NCBI GenBank assembly: GCA_031401035.1
Contig: JANNRA010000035.1
Coordinates: 1,322-65,321, forward strand
Reading direction: 5' to 3'
Length of the DNA: 64,000 nucleotides
Source: a bacterium
GTDB taxonomy: Bacteria; Desulfobacterota; Binatia; HRBIN30; CADEER01
The notes under the pieces were generated by a model. The model did no database searches, was not told where the DNA came from, and saw only the letters and a list, made by a program, of their open reading frames with translations. A program made the translations under genes and the position numbers. Each line of letters begins with the position of its first letter. Position 1 is the stretch's first letter. This document shows, one piece after another, positions 3,623 to 26,358 of the stretch.

Positions 3623-4921
3623 TCAGAAGTTGTGAGCGACCGTGAAGCCGATGACGTTGAGTGAATTGGCCGAATAGTCGCCCTGCACGGTGCCGGCCAG
3701 CGGGCCGCGGGTGGTCTTGATCGGGGCGCTGCCGAGGCTCGCGTACTCGTAGGCGAAGCTGAGTTGGTAGTCCTCGGTGATGTCGTAGAGCACGCCGACG
3801 CCGAAGCGCAGTTGCTGGTCGATCGGCAGGGCCGGACCGCGGTGCGGCTCGGTGAGGGCCGAGCTGTCGTAGGCGAAGCCGAGCTGCAGCAGCGTCGGCG
3901 CACCGAGTCGGTAGTGGGCGCCGATGGCGCCGTGGAAGGTGTCGTCGAAGCCGGCGTCGGCGGCCAGCGCACGCGGCGGCGCCGAGGCCAGCGACACACT
4001 GTACTCGCCGAACTGGCTCCAGTCCTGCCAGCCGACATTGCCCATCAGCGCCAGGTCGTCGGTGATCGCGCCGTAGGCGCTCAGCATCACCTCCTGCGGC
4101 ACGGTCATATCGAGGCCGAGGTTGTTGCCGATCACCCCGGAGCCGCGCAGCACCGCGTCCAGGCCGGGCCCGAGGTTGTTGAACGACGGCACGTCGTCGA
4201 AGCTCTGGTCGACCTGCGAGCGATAGGTGAGGCCGACGCGTACGCGTTCGTTGATCTCGTACAGCGCGCCAACGTTGCCGCCGAAGCCGACGTTGCTGTC
4301 CTCGTACTTGAGCTGGCCGTCGGGGAGCGCATCGAGCACGTTGTTGACCGCTGCCTGGGAGTTGAGCTTCGCCCACTGCACCGAGAAGCCGACGCCGAGC
4401 GACAGCTGCGGCAGCACGCGATAGGCGATGACGGGGTTGAAGTTCAACGTCAACAGCTCGGCTTTGGTGGTATAGTACCGACCGACCCAGTTGCTGTCGT
4501 AGCTGAGGGCGCCACCGAGGTACGAGTTGAAGCTGGCGCCGATTTTGAGCTCGGGCAGGATCGAATAGACGCCGTAGAAGCTACCGGCCGGCACGAAGCC
4601 GCCGGCGTTGCCACCGTTGGTGCCCGTCGCCGTGGTTTCCCCTCCACTGTCGAACTCGGTGGTGACGATCAGCGGCTGCAGCCCGAACAGGAGGTGCGTT
4701 CCATCGAGGCGCGCCATGCCGGCCGGATTGCCGAACGCCGTCGAGGCATCCTGGGCCAGCGCGGCGCGCCCGGCCGCCGCCGTGCCGAGGTCGGGCGTGC
4801 CGACCTCGTAGAGGCCGAGCCCGCCGGCCGAGGCGCGGCGCGCCGTCGCGCCGAGCAGCGCCAGCGCGGCAAGCGCCGTCAGCGCCGCGCGGCGCCACGG
4901 TCTGCGGATCTCCTTGCACAT
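3623..4921 (-). CDS. fadL: FadL/OmpP1/TodX-family outer-membrane transporter for hydrophobic compounds
   Basis: MCKEIRRPWRRAALTALAALALLGATARRASA signal peptide. Family-like N-terminus (GLGLYEVGTPDLGTAAAGRAA...AFGNPAGMARL). C-terminal F. Start chosen at cat 4919-4921. Confidence 0.8.
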   Translation of the reverse strand: MCKEIRRPWRRAALTALAALALLGATARRASAGGLGLYEVGTPDLGTAAAGRAALAQDASTAFGNPAGMARLDGTHLLFGLQPLIVTTEFDSGGETTATGTNGGNAGGFVPAGSFYGVYSILPELKIGASFNSYLGGALSYDSNWVGRYYTTKAELLTLNFNPVIAYRVLPQLSLGVGFSVQWAKLNSQAAVNNVLDALPDGQLKYEDSNVGFGGNVGALYEINERVRVGLTYRSQVDQSFDDVPSFNNLGPGLDAVLRGSGVIGNNLGLDMTVPQEVMLSAYGAITDDLALMGNVGWQDWSQFGEYSVSLASAPPRALAADAGFDDTFHGAIGAHYRLGAPTLLQLGFAYDSSALTEPHRGPALPIDQQLRFGVGVLYDITEDYQLSFAYEYASLGSAPIKTTRGPLAGTVQGDYSANSLNVIGFTVAHNF

Positions 4922-5722: not shown

Positions 5723-6045
5723 CGCGCGCCGCGTTCGGCGTCGAGCAGGTCGCGGCTGGCGACGGCCTCCGCCAGCGCCGACGGTCGATACGCGCCGGCG
5801 TCCTGCGGCAGGCCCGCGACCAGCACCCCTTCGGCGTAGAGCCGCGCCAGCGCCTGCTCGTGCACGCTGCGCGGTGTCCCCGGCCCCGGCTGGCGCAACT
5901 CGGCCACCACCTGGCCGCGGTCGGTCACCAACACCACCTCGCCGTTGCGCACCTCGCGCAGGTAGCTACTGAGTCGGTTCTTCAACTCCTTGACGGCCAC
6001 AGCCTTCAGGTCGTCGAAGAAGCCCCGCGTAGCTACCGGTGTCAA
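5719..6045 (-). CDS. Phd/YefM-family type II antitoxin
   Basis: …FFDDLKAVAVKELKNRLSSYLREVRNGEVVLVTDRGQVVAELRQP is the canonical Phd/YefM N-terminal fold motif. The start codon is uncertain (TTG at 6045, or an internal CTG before KAVAVKEL). Confidence 0.7.
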   Translation of the reverse strand: MTPVATRGFFDDLKAVAVKELKNRLSSYLREVRNGEVVLVTDRGQVVAELRQPGPGTPRSVHEQALARLYAEGVLVAGLPQDAGAYRPSALAEAVASRDLLDAERGAR

Positions 6046-6138
6046 CCGGCGTTCCCGACTCGGTCGCGGCCCCGCCCTCAGGGTGGCGGTGGAACGGACG
6101 GAGTCGTCGGGAGGCGACAGGGTGGATCTCCCGTCTGG

Positions 6139-7374
6139 TCAGTCGAGGTGCTTGTAGATGCGCCCGTCGCGCATCACCAGGTGGATGCGGGCGGCGTCTT
6201 GCAGCGCGGTGATCTCGTCGAGCGGCTGGGCGTCAACCAGAATCAGGTCGGCGCGCTTGCCGGGTTCGATGCTGCCGATCTCGTCGGCGAGACCGAAGAG
6301 CTCGGCGTTGTTGCGTGTCGCCGACAGGATCGCCGCGTGCGCGCCGAGCACGGCGGCCTTCAGCGCCAGCTCCATCGCCTTGAACGGTTGCATCGACGCC
6401 AGCACGTCGGAGCCCGAGCAGATGCGCAGCCCAGCGGCGCGCGCGATGTGCAGCGAGCGCGCCCCGCCGGCGCGCGCCTGCTCGATCTTGGCCAGCATGC
6501 GCGCCGGGATGCCCTGCGCGGCGCCGAACTGGCTGATGAGCTCGTAGGTGGTCAGCGTCGGCACGAACCAGGCGCCGGCGGCGCGCATCGCCGCGGCCGA
6601 CTCCTCGTCGAGGAAGTTGCCGTGCTCGATGCTGCGGACGCCGGCGGCGAGGGCGTTGAGGATGCCCTGTGGCGTGTACACGTGCGCCATGGCGACACGC
6701 CCGACGGCGCGCGCCTCGTAGCAGGCGGCGGCCATCTCCTCGATGGTGAACTGGGTGTGCTCGAGCTCGTCGGTGGGCGACATGCAGCCGCCGCCGCCCA
6801 TGATCTTGATCGCATGCGCGCCGCTGCGCAGTTGCTCGCGCGCCGCCAGGCGCATGGCGTCGGGCGAGTCGCAGATACGCGGCGTCGCGACCAGCCCGGG
6901 GATGCCCTCGAGCGGCGCGTGCTGGTGGTGCGGCTCGCGCCAGTCGCCGTGCCCGCCGGTCTGCGACAGGCAGGCGCCGGTGAACAGCACGCGCGGGCCG
7001 CGCAACAGGCCGCGCGCGATCGCCTGCGGGAAGCCCCAGTCGAGGCCGAAGGCGTCGCGCACGGTGGTGAAGCCGGCGTCGAGCGTCTGCTCGAGGACGT
7101 CCTTGATGCGCAGCGCCAGGGTCGCGGGGGAATCGCGGCGCGCGGCGGCGGGGTCGGTCTCGACGATCGCGGCGTGGATGTGCGCGTCGGTCAGGCCGGG
7201 CATCAGCGTGCGACCGGCGCAGTCGACCAGCGTCGCGTCGCGCGGCAGCACCGGCTCGTCGCCGCGCGCCACCTGCGCGATGCGCCCGTTCGCGACGACC
7301 ACCGTCGAGCGGGCGACCGGCTCCGCACCGGTACAGTCGAGCAAGGTGCAGTTGCGGAAAACGGTGGTCGACAT
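6139..7374 (-). CDS. Amidohydrolase-family metal-dependent hydrolase
   Basis: MSTTVFRNCTLLD…PGLTDAHIHAA (HxH metal site) …HAIKIMGGGG… and SGSD motifs. Start chosen at cat 7372-7374; the ORF track extends upstream to 7482. Confidence 0.8.
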   Translation of the reverse strand: MSTTVFRNCTLLDCTGAEPVARSTVVVANGRIAQVARGDEPVLPRDATLVDCAGRTLMPGLTDAHIHAAIVETDPAAARRDSPATLALRIKDVLEQTLDAGFTTVRDAFGLDWGFPQAIARGLLRGPRVLFTGACLSQTGGHGDWREPHHQHAPLEGIPGLVATPRICDSPDAMRLAAREQLRSGAHAIKIMGGGGCMSPTDELEHTQFTIEEMAAACYEARAVGRVAMAHVYTPQGILNALAAGVRSIEHGNFLDEESAAAMRAAGAWFVPTLTTYELISQFGAAQGIPARMLAKIEQARAGGARSLHIARAAGLRICSGSDVLASMQPFKAMELALKAAVLGAHAAILSATRNNAELFGLADEIGSIEPGKRADLILVDAQPLDEITALQDAARIHLVMRDGRIYKHLD

Positions 7375-20239: not shown

Positions 20240-20386
20240 GTGCCGCACCAGACCCGCCGCCTGCTCCGCGTGTCAAGCGCCGCCGCCGCGGGCGCGCCCC
20301 GGCTGCAGCACGCCCGTGTCGACTGAGGTGCCGCTCTCTTTCTGGACGGTTTCCCGATGCAACCGTAGTGGTATAGGCGCCCCTGC

Positions 20387-23101
20387 ATGTCTCTGCACCC
20401 CGCGTTCCCGGCGTCGCCGTACGCCGAGCTCATCCCGGAACAGCGGTGGTTTCCGGCCGACGAAACGCTGCGCAGTACGGCCTACGAGAAACTGCTGCCG
20501 CCGCTGGTGGCGAGAATTCGGCAAGAGGTCTACGCGTGGCGCAGCAAGGGATACCTGGGCGCCTCTGCGACCTCGGCGGCCTTGTTGCGCTGGTGGTTCG
20601 AGACGGACCACTGGATCGAAGGTGCCGATGGTTCGCGCTCTCTGTTCCGCTACTATTTCGCCCAGCGTGAAGCGGTCGAGACGCTCATCTGGTTGCACGA
20701 GGTCCGACGCGCGCGGGACAAATTCGATCTGCTTCGCTTCGATGCATCGGGCGCGGTGTCCTCGGGCATGTTCGATGAGGACTGGCCGCGCTACGTCCTG
20801 AAGATGGCGACCGGTGCGGGGAAGACGAAAGTCCTCTCCCTGCTGATTGCGTGGAGCTTCTTCCACAAGCGCTACGAGGATGACTCCGCGCTGGCCCGCA
20901 ACTTCCTCGTCATCGCCCCCAACATCATCGTGCTTGAGCGACTGCGGGCGGACTTCGACGGCCTGCGCATCTTCTTCAACGACCCCGTCCTGCCTACCAA
21001 TGGGCACGCAGGGCGGAACTGGCACGACGACTTCCAACTGACCCTTCACATCCAGGACGACGTGCGCGTGGTCCGCGACACCGGCAATCTCTTCTTGACC
21101 AACATCCACCGCGTCTTCCTCGGCGACGTTGCCGATCCCTCGCTGGAGGACGACGACCTGCGCGACTACTTCCTCGACCCGTTTGGCCCGAAGCCTGCGG
21201 GAAAGACCACCGACAGCAAGACCGACCTCGGCGAGATCATCCGCGACGTCGAGGAGCTGGCCGTCTTCAACGACGAGGCGCATCACATTCACAACCCAAA
21301 GATGGCGTGGTTCAAATCCATCCAGGATATCCACCACGGGATGCTGCAAAAGGATCGCCGCCTGGCGCTGCAAGTGGACGTAACGGCGACGCCGCGCCAC
21401 GACAACGGGGCGATCTTCGTCCAGACGGTTTCCGACTACCCCCTGGTCGAGGCCATCCACCAGAACGTCGTCAAGCATCCCGTCCTGCCCGACGCCGTCA
21501 GCCGGGCCAAGCTGCACGAGCACACCAGCGCCATCTTCACGGAGAAATACGCCGACTACCTCGCGCTCGGCATCGAGGAGTGGCGCAAGAGCTACGCCGA
21601 ACACGAACCGCTGGGCAAGAAAACCGTCCTCTTCGTCATGGTGGACGACACCCGCAACTGCGACGACGTCGGCGCGTACCTCGAAACCATCTGCCCCGAG
21701 CTGCAAGGGGCGGTGCTCGTCATCCACACCAAGAACAACGGCGACATTTCCGAGGCCGCCTCAGGCAAGAACAAGGAAGAACTGGAACTCCTCCGCAAGC
21801 AGTCCAACGAGATCGATTCCTGGAAATCGCCGTTCAAGGCCATCGTCTCGGTCCTCGTGCTCAAGGAAGGATGGGACCTGCGCAACGTCACGACCATCGT
21901 CGGCCTCCGCGCTTACGTTGCGAAGAGCAACATCTTGCCTGAGCAAACGCTTGGGCGTGGGCTGCGCCGGATGTACTTCGGCACCGACACGCAGGAAACC
22001 GTGTCCGTCATGGGGACGCCGGCGTTCATGGACTTCGTCGAGTCCATCCAGAGCGAGGGCGTCAGCTTCGAACACGTCCCGATGGGCGCCGGCACGACAC
22101 GCCAGGATTCGCTCATCGTCGAAGTGGACACCGATAACCCCGACAAGGACCTCGACGGGCTCGACATTGCGCTCCCGAAACTCACGCGCCGCTTTCACCG
22201 CGACTTCAAGGACCTCGACGCGCTCGACCCGGCGGCCCTGGGGAACACGCGGCTGCCCCTGAAACCGTTCACGCCGGAAGAGACGCGGCAGATCGTGTTC
22301 AAGACCATCCTCGACGCCGAGGTCCATCACACCATCCAGCTCGACGGCGCCGGGCCGGCCGACTACCGCTCCGTCGTGGCGTTCTTCGCCCGCCAGCTCC
22401 TCAAAGATCTGCGCCTCGTCGGCGGCTACGACGTGCTCTATGGGAAGGTGAAGACCTTCATGCGCGAGCATCTGTTCGCCCCATCGCCGGTGCAGCTCGA
22501 GGACCCGGTCGTGCTGCGCAACCTCTCGGAGGCCGATGTCGGCAAAGTGCTGTACGATGCCTTCAAGACCGCCATCAACGCGCTTACCATTCAGGTAACC
22601 GGCACGACGCGCATCGAAGATCGCATTCGCCTGCGCGAGACGCGTCCCTTTCGCACCGAGCCCCGGCCCTATCTCGCGGCGCGCAAGTCGATCTTCACCA
22701 AGATCGTCGGCGAGCCCCACTCCGGCGGCTTCGAGCTCTCCTTTGCGGCCTTCCTCGACGCCGCGCCGGACGTCGCCGCGTTCGCCAAGAACTACCTCGC
22801 GGTCGGCTTCAAACTCGACTACGTCAAGGCCGATGGCGACCTCTCCAACTACACGCCCGACTTCATCGTCCGCACCACCGACGGTGCGGTCTGGATCGTC
22901 GAAACCAAGGGTCGTCAGGAGATCGATCTGCCGCAGAAGATGACGCGGCTGCGGCAGTGGTGCGCGGACGCGACCGCCGCCGAGGAGAATGGCCAGCGGT
23001 ACGATTTCGTTTTCGTCGATCAACCCAGCTTCGAGAAGCACGTCCCGCAGACATTCGCCGCGGTCGCCGCCAGCTTCACCGAGCACAAAGGGTGCCCATG
23101 A
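20387..23101 (+). CDS. res: Type III restriction enzyme Res subunit (SF2 helicase with C-terminal PD-(D/E)xK nuclease)
   Basis: Walker A 'ATGAGKT'. DEAH box 'VFNDEAHH'. Helicase C motifs. C-terminal 'YTPDFIV…VWIVETKG' nuclease motif. Confidence 0.85.
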   Translation: MSLHPAFPASPYAELIPEQRWFPADETLRSTAYEKLLPPLVARIRQEVYAWRSKGYLGASATSAALLRWWFETDHWIEGADGSRSLFRYYFAQREAVETLIWLHEVRRARDKFDLLRFDASGAVSSGMFDEDWPRYVLKMATGAGKTKVLSLLIAWSFFHKRYEDDSALARNFLVIAPNIIVLERLRADFDGLRIFFNDPVLPTNGHAGRNWHDDFQLTLHIQDDVRVVRDTGNLFLTNIHRVFLGDVADPSLEDDDLRDYFLDPFGPKPAGKTTDSKTDLGEIIRDVEELAVFNDEAHHIHNPKMAWFKSIQDIHHGMLQKDRRLALQVDVTATPRHDNGAIFVQTVSDYPLVEAIHQNVVKHPVLPDAVSRAKLHEHTSAIFTEKYADYLALGIEEWRKSYAEHEPLGKKTVLFVMVDDTRNCDDVGAYLETICPELQGAVLVIHTKNNGDISEAASGKNKEELELLRKQSNEIDSWKSPFKAIVSVLVLKEGWDLRNVTTIVGLRAYVAKSNILPEQTLGRGLRRMYFGTDTQETVSVMGTPAFMDFVESIQSEGVSFEHVPMGAGTTRQDSLIVEVDTDNPDKDLDGLDIALPKLTRRFHRDFKDLDALDPAALGNTRLPLKPFTPEETRQIVFKTILDAEVHHTIQLDGAGPADYRSVVAFFARQLLKDLRLVGGYDVLYGKVKTFMREHLFAPSPVQLEDPVVLRNLSEADVGKVLYDAFKTAINALTIQVTGTTRIEDRIRLRETRPFRTEPRPYLAARKSIFTKIVGEPHSGGFELSFAAFLDAAPDVAAFAKNYLAVGFKLDYVKADGDLSNYTPDFIVRTTDGAVWIVETKGRQEIDLPQKMTRLRQWCADATAAEENGQRYDFVFVDQPSFEKHVPQTFAAVAASFTEHKGCP

Positions 23102-23997
23102 GCGACTCCCATCCCAATCCCGAGACCCGCATCGCGCTGTTCCAGCGCAAGGAAGTTCGCCGAACCATCCACGACAACGAATGGTGGTTCGTCATCACGG
23201 ACGTGATCACGGCCCTGACCGATTCGGTCGATCCGTCGCAGTACCTCAAGCGCATCCGCCAGCGTGATCCGCACCTGGATGCGGTCTTCAAAGGGGGGGT
23301 ACAAGTTGTACCCCCCCTTGCCCTGGAGTTTGCGACTGGCGGCGGTCCTCAGAAGATTCTCTGCTGGAACACCGAGGGGCTGTTCCGCCTCATCCAATCC
23401 ATTCCAAGCCGCAAGGCCGAGCCGTTCAAGCGTTGGCTCGCCAAGGTCGGCTACGAACGCATCCGAGAGATCGAAGACCCCGAGCTCGCAACGAAACGCA
23501 GCCGCGCCCTGTACACGGCCAAGGGCTACTCGGACGCCTGGATCGAGAAGCGGATGCGCTCCATCGCCATCCGCGACGAGCTCACCGGCGAATGGAAGAA
23601 GCGCGGCGTGAAAGAAGGGCGCGAGTACGGCATCCTCACGGCGGAGATCTCCCAGGCCACCTTCGGTCTGACGCCCAGCCACTATGCCGCGCTCAAGCAA
23701 CTCAAGGGCGAGAACCTGCGCGACCACATGGACGACCTCGAGCTGATCTTCTCCATGTTGGGCGAAGCCGCCACTACCGAGATCGCCCGCACCCGCGATG
23801 CCCAGGGGTTTCCGCAGAACAAGCAGGTCGCCCACGCCGGCGGCACGGTCGCCGGCAATGCCCGCCGTGAGCTCGAACAAAAGAGCGGCCGCAAGGTCGT
23901 CAGCGGCGAGAACTACCTGGCGCTGACGCAAGCGGCGAAGAAAGCGCAGCGGCTGGCAGGCAAGGCCCCCACCAAACCGCGCGGCCGAGAATCCTGA
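23098..23997 (+). CDS. dinD: DinD-family (DNA-damage-inducible protein D-like) protein with N-terminal Bro-N domain, embedded in the R-M operon
   Basis: Bro-N-like 'NEWWFVITDVITAL…ILCWNTEGLFRLIQSIPSRKAEPFKRWLAKV'. C-terminal half aligns with E. coli DinD as recalled from memory. The ATG overlaps the res stop (ATGA). It ends 2 nt before the mod ATG. Confidence 0.7.
   Translation: MSDSHPNPETRIALFQRKEVRRTIHDNEWWFVITDVITALTDSVDPSQYLKRIRQRDPHLDAVFKGGVQVVPPLALEFATGGGPQKILCWNTEGLFRLIQSIPSRKAEPFKRWLAKVGYERIREIEDPELATKRSRALYTAKGYSDAWIEKRMRSIAIRDELTGEWKKRGVKEGREYGILTAEISQATFGLTPSHYAALKQLKGENLRDHMDDLELIFSMLGEAATTEIARTRDAQGFPQNKQVAHAGGTVAGNARRELEQKSGRKVVSGENYLALTQAAKKAQRLAGKAPTKPRGRES
23293..23317. repeat. 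Perfect 25-bp palindrome GGGGGGGTACAAGTTGTACCCCCCC (G7/C7 tracts) inside the dinD-like CDS
   Basis: Read directly. It encodes KGGVQVVPPL and has a lower-GC local context. Confidence 0.9.
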
Positions 23998-23999
23998 CG

Positions 24000-26327
24000 A
24001 TGGCCCGCGCGCCCGCCGACGCCTAGGAGCTCTCCGACGCCGAGAAGCGCGACCTCATCAAGCTCATCACCGAGGGCAAGCCGCTGCCGGAGAGGTACCG
24101 CTTCCTCCTCTTCGCCGATAAGCGCGAGGTCGAGCTCGTCTGGAACGGCAAGTCGCGCGACGTCTGCACGACCATCCTTCCCTTCCAGACCCTCGAACAC
24201 ATCGACGAGCCGCGGCAAGAGGCGGCAGACGAGCAAGCCGCCCTCTTCGATCAACGCGGCCGCCAGCTCAAAGGTTGGACCAACAAGCTCATCTGGGGCG
24301 ACAACAAACTCATCCTCGCCTCGCTCAAGAGCGGCGCGCTGCGGCGCCAGATCGAGGACGCCGGCGGGCTGAAGCTCATCTACATCGACCCGCCCTTCGA
24401 CGTCGGCGCCGACTTCAGCATGGACATCGAAATCGGCGGCGAAACCTTCCACAAAGAACCGAACCTCCTCGAACAGATTGCCTACCGCGACACCTGGGGC
24501 CGCGGCGCGGATTCGTTCATCGCCATGATCTACGAACGCCTCATTCTCATGCGCGATTTGATGCACAGCGAGGGCAGCATCTATGTGCATTGCGATTGGC
24601 GGGTGACGGCGTTTATTCGCTTGGCAATGGGAGAGGTCTTCAATGAATCAAACTTTCGAAACGAGATTATTTGGAAGAGGACGAGTGCCCACAGTAGTGC
24701 GAAGCGTTTTGGCCCGGTCCACGACACAGTTCTGCTTTACGCAAAGACAGATGCGCAGATTTGGAACGAAGTGCTGCAAGATTATGAGGCAGCGTACATT
24801 GAGCAAAGGTTCGCCCGAACTGACCCGGACGGCAGGCCATGGAAGGATGCTGACCTCACCGGCTCGGGCATTCGACAAGGCAACACCGGACTGCCGTGGC
24901 GTGGCTTTAATCCCACCGAGAAAGGCCGGCATTGGGCCTATCCACCAAGGGAACTCGATGTGATGGATAGCAGGGGTTTGATCCATTGGCCGAAGAAGAA
25001 GAGCGGCTGGCCGAGGCACAAGCAGCATCAGGAGAGGATGGCTGGGATTCCGGTTCAGGATGTCATCACCGACATTTTTCCAATCAACGCCATGGCTCAG
25101 GAACGTCTTGCGTACCCCACCCAAAAGCCCGAAGCCTTGCTTGAGCGCATCCTCAGGGCCAGCAGCAACGAAGGCGATCTCGTCGCTGACTTCTTCTGCG
25201 GCAGCGGCACAACCGCCGCCGTAGCCGAGAAGCTCGGGCGCAAGTGGATCGCTACTGACCTCGGGAAGTTCGGCATCCACACCACTCGCAAGCGGCTGAT
25301 TCAGGTGCAGCGCGAACTCAAGGCAGGTGGCAAGCCGTTCCGTGCCTTCGAGGTGCTGAACCTCGGCCGCTACGAGCGCCAAGCGTATCTGAACGTCAGC
25401 GGTCGGCTCACGGGCAAGAAGAAGGAGCAGGCGTTGGCGCGCAAGGAACAGGAGTTCCGCGATCTGATCCTCAAGGCCTACCGCGCTGAGCCGTTGCCGG
25501 ATGCGGGATTCTTCCACGGTAAGAGCGGGGGGCGGCTGGTGGTCGTTGGCCCGATCAACCTGCCGGTGGGCCGGCTGTTCGTGGAGGAGGTCATCACGGA
25601 GTGCCGCAAGCGCGGCGCGACGCGCGCCGATGTGCTGGCGTTCGAGTTCGAGATGGGCCTTTTCCCCGCCGTGCTGGACGAGGCGAAGCAGAAGGGTATC
25701 GATCTGGCGCCCAAGGCGATTCCGCCGGAAGTGTTCGACAAGCGCGCCGTCGAGAAGGGCCAGGTTCGCTTCCACGATGTGGCCTACATCGAAGTCACGC
25801 CGCGTGTCGCCCAGCCGGACTCGCTGACCCTCGCAGTCGAGCTGACCGATTTCTCGGTCTACTACTCGCAGGGCCTGGTGGACGCCATCGCCGCCGATCT
25901 GAAGGAAGGCAAGAGCGAGGTCGTCTGCGAGCAGGGCCAGCTGCTCAAGGTGAGCAAGGACAAGAACGGCATCGTCACACGCGACGTCCTGACCAAGCTG
26001 TGGACGGATTGGGTCGATTACTGGGCGGTCGATTTCGACTACGAGAGTCGGAAGGAAATCATCAAGGTGGCGAAGAATCTCGGCGTCGAAGGGCAGCTCC
26101 CCGGCACGGCCGACACCAGTGAGTTCATCGAGTTCGAGGAGCGTTGGACGGGCGCCTACGTCTTCGAGAACGAGTGGCAGAGCTTCCGCACCCGGCAGAA
26201 CCGCGCGCTGGAACTGACCTCCGCCACGCACACCTATGCGACGCCCGGTCGCTACGTCGTAGCCGTGAAGGTGATCGACATCTTCGGCAACGACACGATG
26301 ACGCTCGTCCCTCTCACCGTGGGTTGA
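24000..26327 (+). pseudogene. mod: Type III Mod (beta-class N6-adenine DNA methyltransferase) interrupted by an in-frame TAG at codon 9; carries a C-terminal PKD-like domain
   Basis: ATG 24000, MARAPADA, then TAG at 24024-24026. The same frame continues ELSDAEKRDLIKLITEGKPLPERYRFLLF … IYIDPPFDVGADF (motif IV) … ADFFCGSGTTAAV (motif I). The next in-frame ATG (24418) lies after motif IV. The C-terminus HTYATPGRYVVAVKVIDIFGNDTMTLVPLTV is PKD-like. Confidence 0.7.
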
Positions 26328-26358
26328 CGGTTCTGCCGGGTCCGGACTGGCGTTTGCG

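Follow-up and report, generated by a model that had tools for sequence, protein, structure and literature searches.

A Bro-N/DinD-like Gene at the Variable res–mod Junction of a Type III-like Restriction–Modification Locus

Introduction

In the classical operons of Type III restriction–modification (R-M) systems, the methyltransferase gene (mod) precedes the gene of the restriction subunit (res). DNA cleavage by these systems is ATP-dependent and needs Mod and two inversely oriented unmethylated sites, and the Res subunit needs Mod for DNA recognition. The controller (C) proteins of R-M systems are small (~80–100 aa) helix-turn-helix (HTH) proteins that are conserved with their R-M system. The Escherichia coli protein DinD (b3645) is reportedly SOS-induced and is said to inhibit RecA filaments. 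In this work, a stretch of 64,000 nucleotides from contig JANNRA010000035.1 (assembly GCA_031401035.1, Desulfobacterota), hereafter called the window, was analyzed. It contains a Type III-like gene pair in the order res–mod and, between the two genes, a third gene that encodes a Bro-N domain protein with remote similarity to DinD.

Genes “embedded” in defence operons have already been described (Payne et al. 2024, bioRxiv 10.1101/2024.01.29.577857). That work drew its PDCs from BREX, DISARM and Type I R-M and its HECs from Hma, and the PDCs are proposed defence candidates. In addition, dinD-like genes inside Type I R-M loci are on record (PMC4996451, PMC9881135). The original prediction for this locus, which was made from the sequence, considered the architecture to be uncharacterised. 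This view cannot be kept, since embedding is described in the cited reports and the family of the middle gene corresponds to PDC-S13 of PADLOC. Two further proteins are close to the product of this gene in some respects, namely BstA, a KilA-N-domain abortive-infection protein that localises to replicating phage DNA (PMC8585504), and DdrC of Deinococcus radiodurans, which binds and stabilises DNA breaks and was described as having no homologs outside Deinococcus (PMC11347143).

The preferred interpretation, to which we assign a probability of about 0.7, is that the locus is an acquired Type III-like R-M pair with a res–mod junction that serves as a cargo slot, and that the Bro-N/DinD-like gene is an autonomous module and not a subunit or a dedicated regulator of the R-M enzyme.

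Organization of the Locus

The three genes are located on the plus strand. The res gene (20387..23101) is an intact open reading frame (ORF) encoding a 904-aa superfamily 2 (SF2) helicase-like ATPase with a C-terminal PD-(D/E)xK nuclease. The embedded cargo gene (23098..23997, 299 aa) begins with the ATG at 23098, so that its start codon overlaps the res stop codon in the sequence ATGA (23098..23101), and it ends with TGA at 23995–23997. A spacer of 2 nt (CG) separates this stop codon from the ATG of mod at 24000. The mod gene (24000..26327) is a beta-class N6/N4 DNA methyltransferase gene with a conceptual product of 775 aa, and it is inactivated by a nonsense codon.

The cargo protein was found to contain an N-terminal Bro-N DNA-binding domain (Pfam Bro-N, aa 19–116, E = 3e-11) and a helical C-terminal domain. 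Comparison with PADLOC profiles attributed it to the candidate family PDC-S13 (PDLC04920; E = 1.6e-106, aa 9–284 against positions 4–277 of the 286 in the profile). Its similarity to E. coli DinD is remote: BLASTP gave E = 0.007 with 27% over 111 aa, hhalign gave E = 0.015 with a probability of 3%, and the NCBIfam dinD model (PRK11525) did not match the protein at E ≤ 0.01. Some JGI records label homologs of the cargo protein as DinD. Thus, the Bro-N part of the predicted Bro-N/DinD assignment was confirmed, and the link to E. coli DinD proved weak at the sequence level. The Pfam and PADLOC matches agree with the prediction of a Type III-like pair in the order res–mod at these positions. The predicted DEAH and C-terminal PD-ExK motifs of Res were found as well, and so was the tight coupling of a middle gene that overlaps the res stop codon and ends 2 nt before the mod start.

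The res–mod Junction as a Cargo Slot

Relatives of the window Res were collected by scanning one genome per species, which yielded 192 proteins. The related loci compared in this analysis carry labels such as L001 and L012. The contents of the junction were determined for the 64 homologous loci found via Res that had a resolved junction, and the inserted ORFs were clustered and assigned using Pfam and PADLOC.

The distance between the res stop and the mod start was found to vary from 0 to 3.6 kb. The slot is empty in six loci (L012, L022, L026, L030, L049 and L082). It is occupied by a Schlafen gene (AlbA_2+HATPase_c_4) in 23 loci, by Fic (SoFic-like) and DUF3800 genes in nine loci each, by an AAA_21/OLD/AriA-like ATPase gene in five loci and by a STAND ATPase gene in one. 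The Bro-N gene was found in the slot of about 6 of the 64 loci (L016, L033, L038, L056, L058 and L063), and two or three cargo genes are present in L043, L059, L074 and L097. Cargo types are interleaved inside clusters of Res proteins with at least 88% identity, and the cluster of the window Res itself includes the empty-slot locus L012.

The middle gene had been predicted to be a component of the operon, acting as a controller, an anti-restriction factor or an addiction factor. The census argues against this, since only ~6 of 64 junctions carry a Bro-N gene, six are empty and the rest contain unrelated cargo. It is very improbable that the cargo protein is a dedicated regulator of the R-M system, whether as a controller similar to C proteins or as a DNA-damage-linked factor of restriction alleviation or anti-restriction. 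The DNA-binding domain and the position of the gene between res and mod would fit such a role, as would the remotely DinD-like C-terminal region and a fold resembling that of DdrC, a protein that binds DNA breaks. However, ~90% of the homologous res/mod loci, including many whose genes are intact, lack the gene; Fic, Schlafen, DUF3800 and OLD-like genes can take its place; and most of its occurrences lie outside this R-M family. The identity of a C protein was also rejected: with its 299 aa the cargo protein greatly exceeds C proteins in size, and an HTH_3-type match was not obtained for it.

An overlap of 4 nt between the res stop codon and the first cargo ORF is present in 24 of 51 loci, and a 2-nt spacer separates them in 11 more; this applies to any cargo type. 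Because the same spacing recurs whatever the cargo, the tight translational coupling is a property of the slot (35 of 51 loci) and no sign that the cargo protein belongs to the enzyme.

Two junctions retain traces of earlier arrangements. Between res and the Bro-N gene of L016 (10713–10905), two pieces of a Fic cargo gene were found, namely its first ~28 nt (with the res end and the start of Fic) and its last ~73 nt; the same Fic cargo stands intact in L006. This remnant is a footprint of cargo replacement and indicates cargo turnover. In the window, the last cargo codons and the spacer (23975–24002, GAATCCTGAC-G-ATG) resemble the res end and mod start of the empty-slot loci L022 and L082 (AAATCCTGACC-ATG), which suggests that the insertion fell just upstream of the original res stop codon.

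Genomic Contexts of the Bro-N Gene

The search for the cargo family revealed more than 8000 matches. Nearly all of the best 120 have an identity of at least 75%, and the identity across phyla is 75–85%. The window copy is 80% identical to the solo copy of L085 and 75–78% identical to the copies located in other res/mod loci. The res/mod family of the window is present in only 3 of the 80 metagenomic loci that were found via the Bro-N gene, and the expected conserved operon member thus turned out, in the comparison of neighbourhoods, to be a sporadic insertion.

Homologs with 75–81% identity were found between cysD and cysN and also after an ABC permease gene. Other homologs are located, with 2-nt gaps, between genes of a PLD-SNF2 nuclease-helicase and an Eco57I/MmeI-type methylase. 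Further neighbours of the family are MmeI-type enzymes, RhuM and AAA_21 genes, and its members also occur in sugar-nucleotide, SOD, RtcB and further housekeeping neighbourhoods. Because R-M loci of other types, CRISPR-Cas loci and housekeeping operons also harbour the gene, it is an autonomous embedded gene and not a Type III component.

Some of these contexts are described here with their positions. In L089–L092 (~6001–6864), a homolog with 77% identity lies between cysD and cysN, which encode the subunits of sulfate adenylyltransferase, and thus in a housekeeping operon. In CRISPR-Cas loci, homologs lie between casE (or cas4) and cas1 (L164, 4001–4828; L166, 4001–4819; L179, 4001–4810); this position is between the interference and adaptation modules.

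The ratio of non-synonymous to synonymous substitution rates (dN/dS) of the cargo gene was estimated as ~0.1–0.15 at dS values of 0.7–1.6, i.e., the gene is under purifying selection. This bears on the assumption that the gene is a purely selfish operon invader, which inserts co-directionally into any expressed operon without benefit to the host and for which R-M and CRISPR loci are tolerant “sinks”. The very heterogeneous neighbourhoods, housekeeping operons included, the confinement of homology to the ORF (conserved flanks and mobility genes are lacking) and the 75–85% identity across phyla are in line with this assumption, and a palindrome conserved inside the gene (see below) could be a cis site for a mobility mechanism. 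Nevertheless, we consider it unlikely: the whole protein is under strong purifying selection, domains of a recombinase, nuclease or transposase are absent from it, the ends of an element cannot be defined by a palindrome that lies mid-gene, and about one third of the neighbours are defence genes.

The same contexts allow us to evaluate a PrrC-like role, in which the Bro-N protein would be a guard or back-up partner that is held by Res/Mod, or senses them, and is released upon phage anti-restriction. Its tight translational coupling with res, the repeated placement between nuclease/helicase and methylase genes in two unrelated R-M families and the precedent of PrrC, summarised in Payne et al. 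2024, speak for this role. On the other hand, close homologs occur in cysDN, ABC transporter and CRISPR-Cas loci without any R-M, the slot accepts unrelated cargo, and loci with an empty slot have intact res and mod. Moreover, no effector (nuclease or toxin) domain was found in the protein, and the cargo gene is intact in the window and in L001–L004, where the R-M genes are broken. A guard of this kind therefore seems rather improbable to us, and an autonomous cargo gene is preferred.

The occurrence of the family in phages was also considered. Full-length members are almost lacking in 50,697 phage records, and the matches between phage antirepressors and the cargo protein cover only aa 4–115, with 32–35% identity. 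An identity as a phage Bro protein or antirepressor (Ant) was rejected: a Bro-N domain is present, but no Ant/KilA-C match was obtained and no phage genes flank the locus. A tandem duplication of the N-terminal Bro-N region was noted in one 430-aa homolog (P0063).

Predicted Structure and Function of the Cargo Protein

Pfam and NCBIfam searches revealed no enzymatic, recombinase, nuclease, transposase or toxin domain in the cargo protein. Modeling with AlphaFold led to a beta/alpha N-terminal domain and an all-helical C-terminal domain, with a predicted local distance difference test score (pLDDT) of 73 and a predicted template modeling score (pTM) of 0.47. A Foldseek search with this model found DdrC (PDB 7qvb, 8u0g) as the sole significant full-length structural match (E = 1.3e-4), which hints at a distant relationship between the cargo family and DdrC. 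A comparison of the Bro-N family profile with PDB sequences gave spurious matches to flavivirus NS5 only. Judging from the predicted model, the product of the cargo gene is most likely a non-enzymatic DNA-binding protein with an N-terminal domain of the Bro-N/KilA-N/APSES type and a helical C-terminal domain, with a DdrC-like architecture.

Such a protein would act directly on DNA, either on invading phage DNA or on broken or recombining DNA. It could block phage replication like BstA or interfere with RecA-type recombination like DinD. The gene, which is translationally coupled to res, would be co-transcribed with the operon, and its product may represent an extra defence layer that moves and is expressed with the R-M module and acts independently of Res and Mod.

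Intragenic Hairpin

A perfect palindrome of 29 nt, AAGGGGGGGTACAA-G-TTGTACCCCCCCTT, was found within the cargo ORF on the plus strand (23291..23319, codons 65–74). It forms a hairpin with a 13-bp stem, which is the most stable local fold of the island. The palindrome occurs only once in the window, even if up to 3 mismatches are allowed, and is not expected by chance. A hairpin occupies the same place in 92 of the 92 non-identical homologs collected (58–84% aa identity) and is usually the most stable part of the gene.

Several features of the alignment were evaluated. The hairpin is paired in 89% of the alignment cells, compared with 79.1 ± 0.6% in shuffles and 46–61% for slid partners, and 10 of the 13 pairs have changes on both sides. 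Compensatory cells numbered 110, compared with 38 ± 4 in shuffles and 8–34 for slid partners. Codon choice also differs: glycine is encoded by GGG in 142 of 188 cases inside the hairpin and in 199 of 1461 outside, and proline by CCC in 93 of 113 cases inside and 262 of 840 outside. One subfamily translates the hairpin core GGGGTACAATTTGTACCCC as G-V-Q-F-V-P, another reads it with a one-base shift as W-G-T-I-C-T-P, and distant members of the family (42–58% identity; L033, L198 and L199) have different stems in the same place. The two reading frames of the core and the different stems kept in place by distant members are evidence that selection acts on the nucleic acid. The numbers of G-T (24) and A-C (9) pairs weakly favour the sense strand.

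The dinD gene of E. coli K-12 has a palindrome of its own with 15-nt arms, of the TGACCATTTCGAGGA-GATC type (L093, ~3934–3965, codons 58–69), with a folding energy of −20.5 kcal/mol against a gene mean of −7.5 ± 3.7. In both genes the palindrome is located at a common offset, 36–47 codons after the conserved tryptophan of the N-terminal domain. Relatives of E. coli dinD swap the inner stem from CGAGGA/TCCTCG to TGCTGA/TCAGCA, and palindromes are also present in L191, L195 and L197. In other dinD relatives (L188–L190 and L193), only the outer 7 bp of the palindrome are kept. The Bro-N genes of phage antirepressors do not have the hairpin, and no account of the intragenic hairpin was found in the searchable literature.

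Some functions of the palindrome were considered and rejected. As a phage target, the pattern G6-KACAA-N-TTGTM-C6 was uninformative: it was found in six viral contigs, in none of the six in a DinD-like gene. In five of these six contigs, which represent one recurring sequence family, a T-run follows, so that the element is similar to an intrinsic terminator. A LexA box was rejected by inspection, without a scan, as the core GTAC-N5-GTAC has another spacing and no CTGT..ACAG is present in the palindrome of E. coli dinD. The G-run is not a frameshift site, since it belongs to the stem and all homologs are in frame.

It is tempting to speculate that the intragenic element of the DinD family is the cognate cis partner of the encoded protein and that the res–[slot]–mod module is a dedicated carrier which shuffles such single-gene modules between phyla; we regard this combined proposal as tentative and of low probability. 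If it is true, the cis element could be a “self” tag or decoy similar to that of BstA-aba, or an autoregulatory hairpin or cruciform. Control of this kind would account for the restraint of a DNA-binding protein of the defence or SOS type, which is potentially harmful, wherever its gene is inserted.

The res/mod Pair and the Defect in mod

In Res, the motifs GAGKT (Walker A; aa 143, 20813–20827), DEAH (aa 296, 21272–21283) and D...ETK (aa 839; ETK at 22901–22909) were identified. The protein matched Pfam ResIII (E = 3.9e-12) and, partially, PADLOC REase_III (E = 2.1e-17), and a TnsA-like PD-(D/E)xK match at aa 794–872 (E = 8e-4) was under the cut-off. The NCBIfam models PRK15483 (15 bits against a cut-off of 564) and BPTD_3080 (259 bits against a cut-off of 800) scored low, and no match was found among the PDB sequences, solved Type III Res proteins included. 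The dN/dS of res compared with L001 is ~0.12. Mod was attributed to Pfam N6_N4_Mtase (E = 5.8e-41) and PADLOC MTase_III (E = 6.8e-115) and is homologous to EcoP15I Mod (4zcf_A, E = 1.5e-13) and to the Helicobacter pylori Mod 6k0w (E = 4.9e-13). Its motif IV, DPPF (aa 130, 24387–24398), precedes motif I, FCGSG (aa 399, 25194–25208), which is the order of the beta class. In addition, Mod has a C-terminal extension of ~340 aa with a weak PKD-like end.

The two-gene family is widespread and strongly conserved. The best 80 of the 192 Res relatives are 75–87% identical to the window Res over the whole protein, and a range of 75–89% applies to the 80+ relatives aligned over full length. The relatives originate from Nitrospirota, Verrucomicrobiota, Acidobacteriota, Kiritimatiellia, Planctomycetota, Lentisphaerae, Saccharimonadales and Proteobacteria. 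The order res–mod on one strand was observed in every relative locus where both genes were found, and the order is therefore a fixed trait of this R-M family and no peculiarity of the window locus. Membership in Type III is partial, as the domain features of Mod and Res agree with it and the gene order does not, and the sequence of Res has diverged too far to be recognised by curated Type III models or PDB sequences; hence, we use the term “Type III-like”. The nucleotide similarity between the window and L005–L084 (73–86%) extends from the res ATG to the mod stop in nearly all cases. No conserved flanks, repeats or mobility genes were observed around the modules of L005–L084.

The mod gene contains an in-frame TAG at codon 9 (24024..24026, plus strand), recognised by translation and alignment with homologs. 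The aligned codon encodes tyrosine (TAC/TAT) in all of the ~70 homologous mod genes, within the motif ..YELSDAEKRDLIKLI. Apart from this codon, the frame is open to 26327. The original prediction, which called for a repair of mod, is corrected in this respect: the damage consists of one nonsense codon in place of an invariant tyrosine. The next in-frame ATG, GTG or TTG is located at 24420, past the catalytic DPPF (24387–24398). Since the nonsense codon precedes the catalytic motif and a Type III Res requires Mod, Mod is most likely not made, barring a sequencing error, and the R-M system would be silent, harmlessly so. In the genome of the window, res would be left as an orphan next to an intact cargo gene.

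A similar picture was observed in L001–L004, the closest relatives, which are metagenomic and have the same res–BroN–mod layout and the same cargo. In these loci, res contains an internal stop, mod is broken into 2–3 pieces and the Bro-N gene is intact; thus, the R-M system decays while the cargo persists. Among all relatives, mod is interrupted in about one third.

Composition and Flanks

The GC content of res (63.5%), the cargo gene (64.0%) and mod (61.5%) was found to be ~8–10 points under that of the flanking genes (68.7–74.7%), and the GC content at third codon positions (GC3) is 81–87% in the block and 88–94% in the flanking genes. This confirmed the lower-GC block that had been predicted, and the 5.9-kb block was evidently acquired horizontally. 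The flanks on both sides are formed by minus-strand genes, namely an MRJP/SGL beta-propeller gene and a sulfatase gene. The only non-coding stretch common to the window and its closest relatives is the leader upstream of res (20346..20386, plus strand): DNA homology of the window starts at 20346 in the comparison with L001–L004 and at the res ATG (20386/20387) in the comparison with all other relatives.

A consensus scan revealed no sigma-70-like promoter in the leader or inside the island, and terminator-like sites in the island occur only at chance level. At the island borders, direct and inverted repeats were found only at chance level, and no boundary of the tRNA/integrase type and no mobility genes were found. 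A scan of the island against Rfam at E ≤ 1 gave no match. An inverted repeat of 19 nt (95% complementary) was noted, with one arm in the 3′ end of mod (26185–26203) and the other directly after the mod stop (26328–26346).

Discussion

Several points weigh against the interpretation of the Bro-N gene as autonomous defence cargo. Firstly, PDC-S13 is only a candidate defence family, and about two thirds of the contexts of the gene have no recognised defence domain next door; the neighbours that can be named are housekeeping genes and the others are unassigned, which weakens a pure defence reading. Secondly, the exact placement of the gene between nuclease/helicase and methylase genes recurs in two unrelated R-M families, with junctions of 2–4 nt, and this recurrence could mean a functional link to restriction complexes beyond hitch-hiking. 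Thirdly, the confidence of the cargo model is moderate (pLDDT 73, pTM 0.47), the template modeling scores (TM-scores) with DdrC are low (0.30–0.41), and the sequence similarity to E. coli DinD is only marginal. Finally, co-transcription is deduced from gene spacing, and an error in sequencing or assembly could have produced the TAG codon of mod.

The window locus is no new kind of R-M system. It adds to the known cases in which a defence operon contains an embedded defence-candidate gene, and its host R-M system has been inactivated; the cargo-slot family and the intragenic hairpin shared with E. coli dinD add to its interest. The locus extends embedding to a Type III-like family in which ~90% of the loci have exchangeable cargo at one precise junction. 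Natural pairs of alleles with and without cargo are available in this family for testing whether embedded genes and their host system cooperate. PDC-S13/DinD-like genes are autonomous, being found in operons for R-M, CRISPR-Cas and housekeeping functions alike, and this speaks against a role tied to one system. In addition, the covarying hairpin, with its position common to E. coli dinD, provides a testable handle on the poorly understood function of the DinD family.

Comparison with Known Systems

As in the embedded genes of Payne et al. 2024, the Bro-N gene is located co-directionally between genes of a multi-gene defence system, and the other cargo of the slot in the window family (Fic, ABC/OLD-like ATPases and DUF3800) is typical of that class. 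The hosts of the PDCs in that work are BREX, DISARM and Type I R-M, whereas the host in the window is a Type III-like res–mod pair. This pair is similar to EcoP1I and EcoP15I in its beta-class Mod (DPPF before FxGxG) and in its Res, with SF2 motifs and a C-terminal PD-(D/E)xK region. It differs from them in the order res–mod, the cargo slot at the junction, the ~340-aa extension of Mod and a Res without sequence match to solved Type III Res proteins.

PrrC offers another example of a gene that lies within an R-M operon, that of the Type I system EcoprrI, and is co-expressed with it. However, PrrC is an ABC-ATPase anticodon nuclease that is almost only embedded, while the Bro-N gene encodes no effector domain and is mostly located outside R-M loci. 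DdrC of D. radiodurans is a distant counterpart, with 13–14% identity and TM-scores of 0.30–0.41, obtained via a predicted model of moderate confidence. E. coli DinD has a similar length, a weak similarity in the C-terminal half at “..LRDHM.DLEL..” and the palindrome at the same offset; in contrast to dinD, the window gene starts inside res and so lacks a separate promoter region, and the similarity is limited to an E of about 0.01.

BstA resembles the cargo protein in its N-terminal domain of the KilA-N/Bro-N superfamily, followed by a second domain of ~150 aa, and in having no enzymatic domain. It is prophage-borne, in contrast to the window family, which is almost absent from phage genomes. 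Membership in the BstA family was rejected, as PADLOC gave no BstA match for the cargo protein, and the likeness is architectural only. The aba element differs from the window palindrome in overlapping the gene start and in consisting of direct and not inverted repeats. Nevertheless, BstA-aba (PMC8585504) comprises a short cis DNA element within the gene locus, with protein variants that have cognate elements, and in this respect it parallels the covarying palindrome of the window gene.

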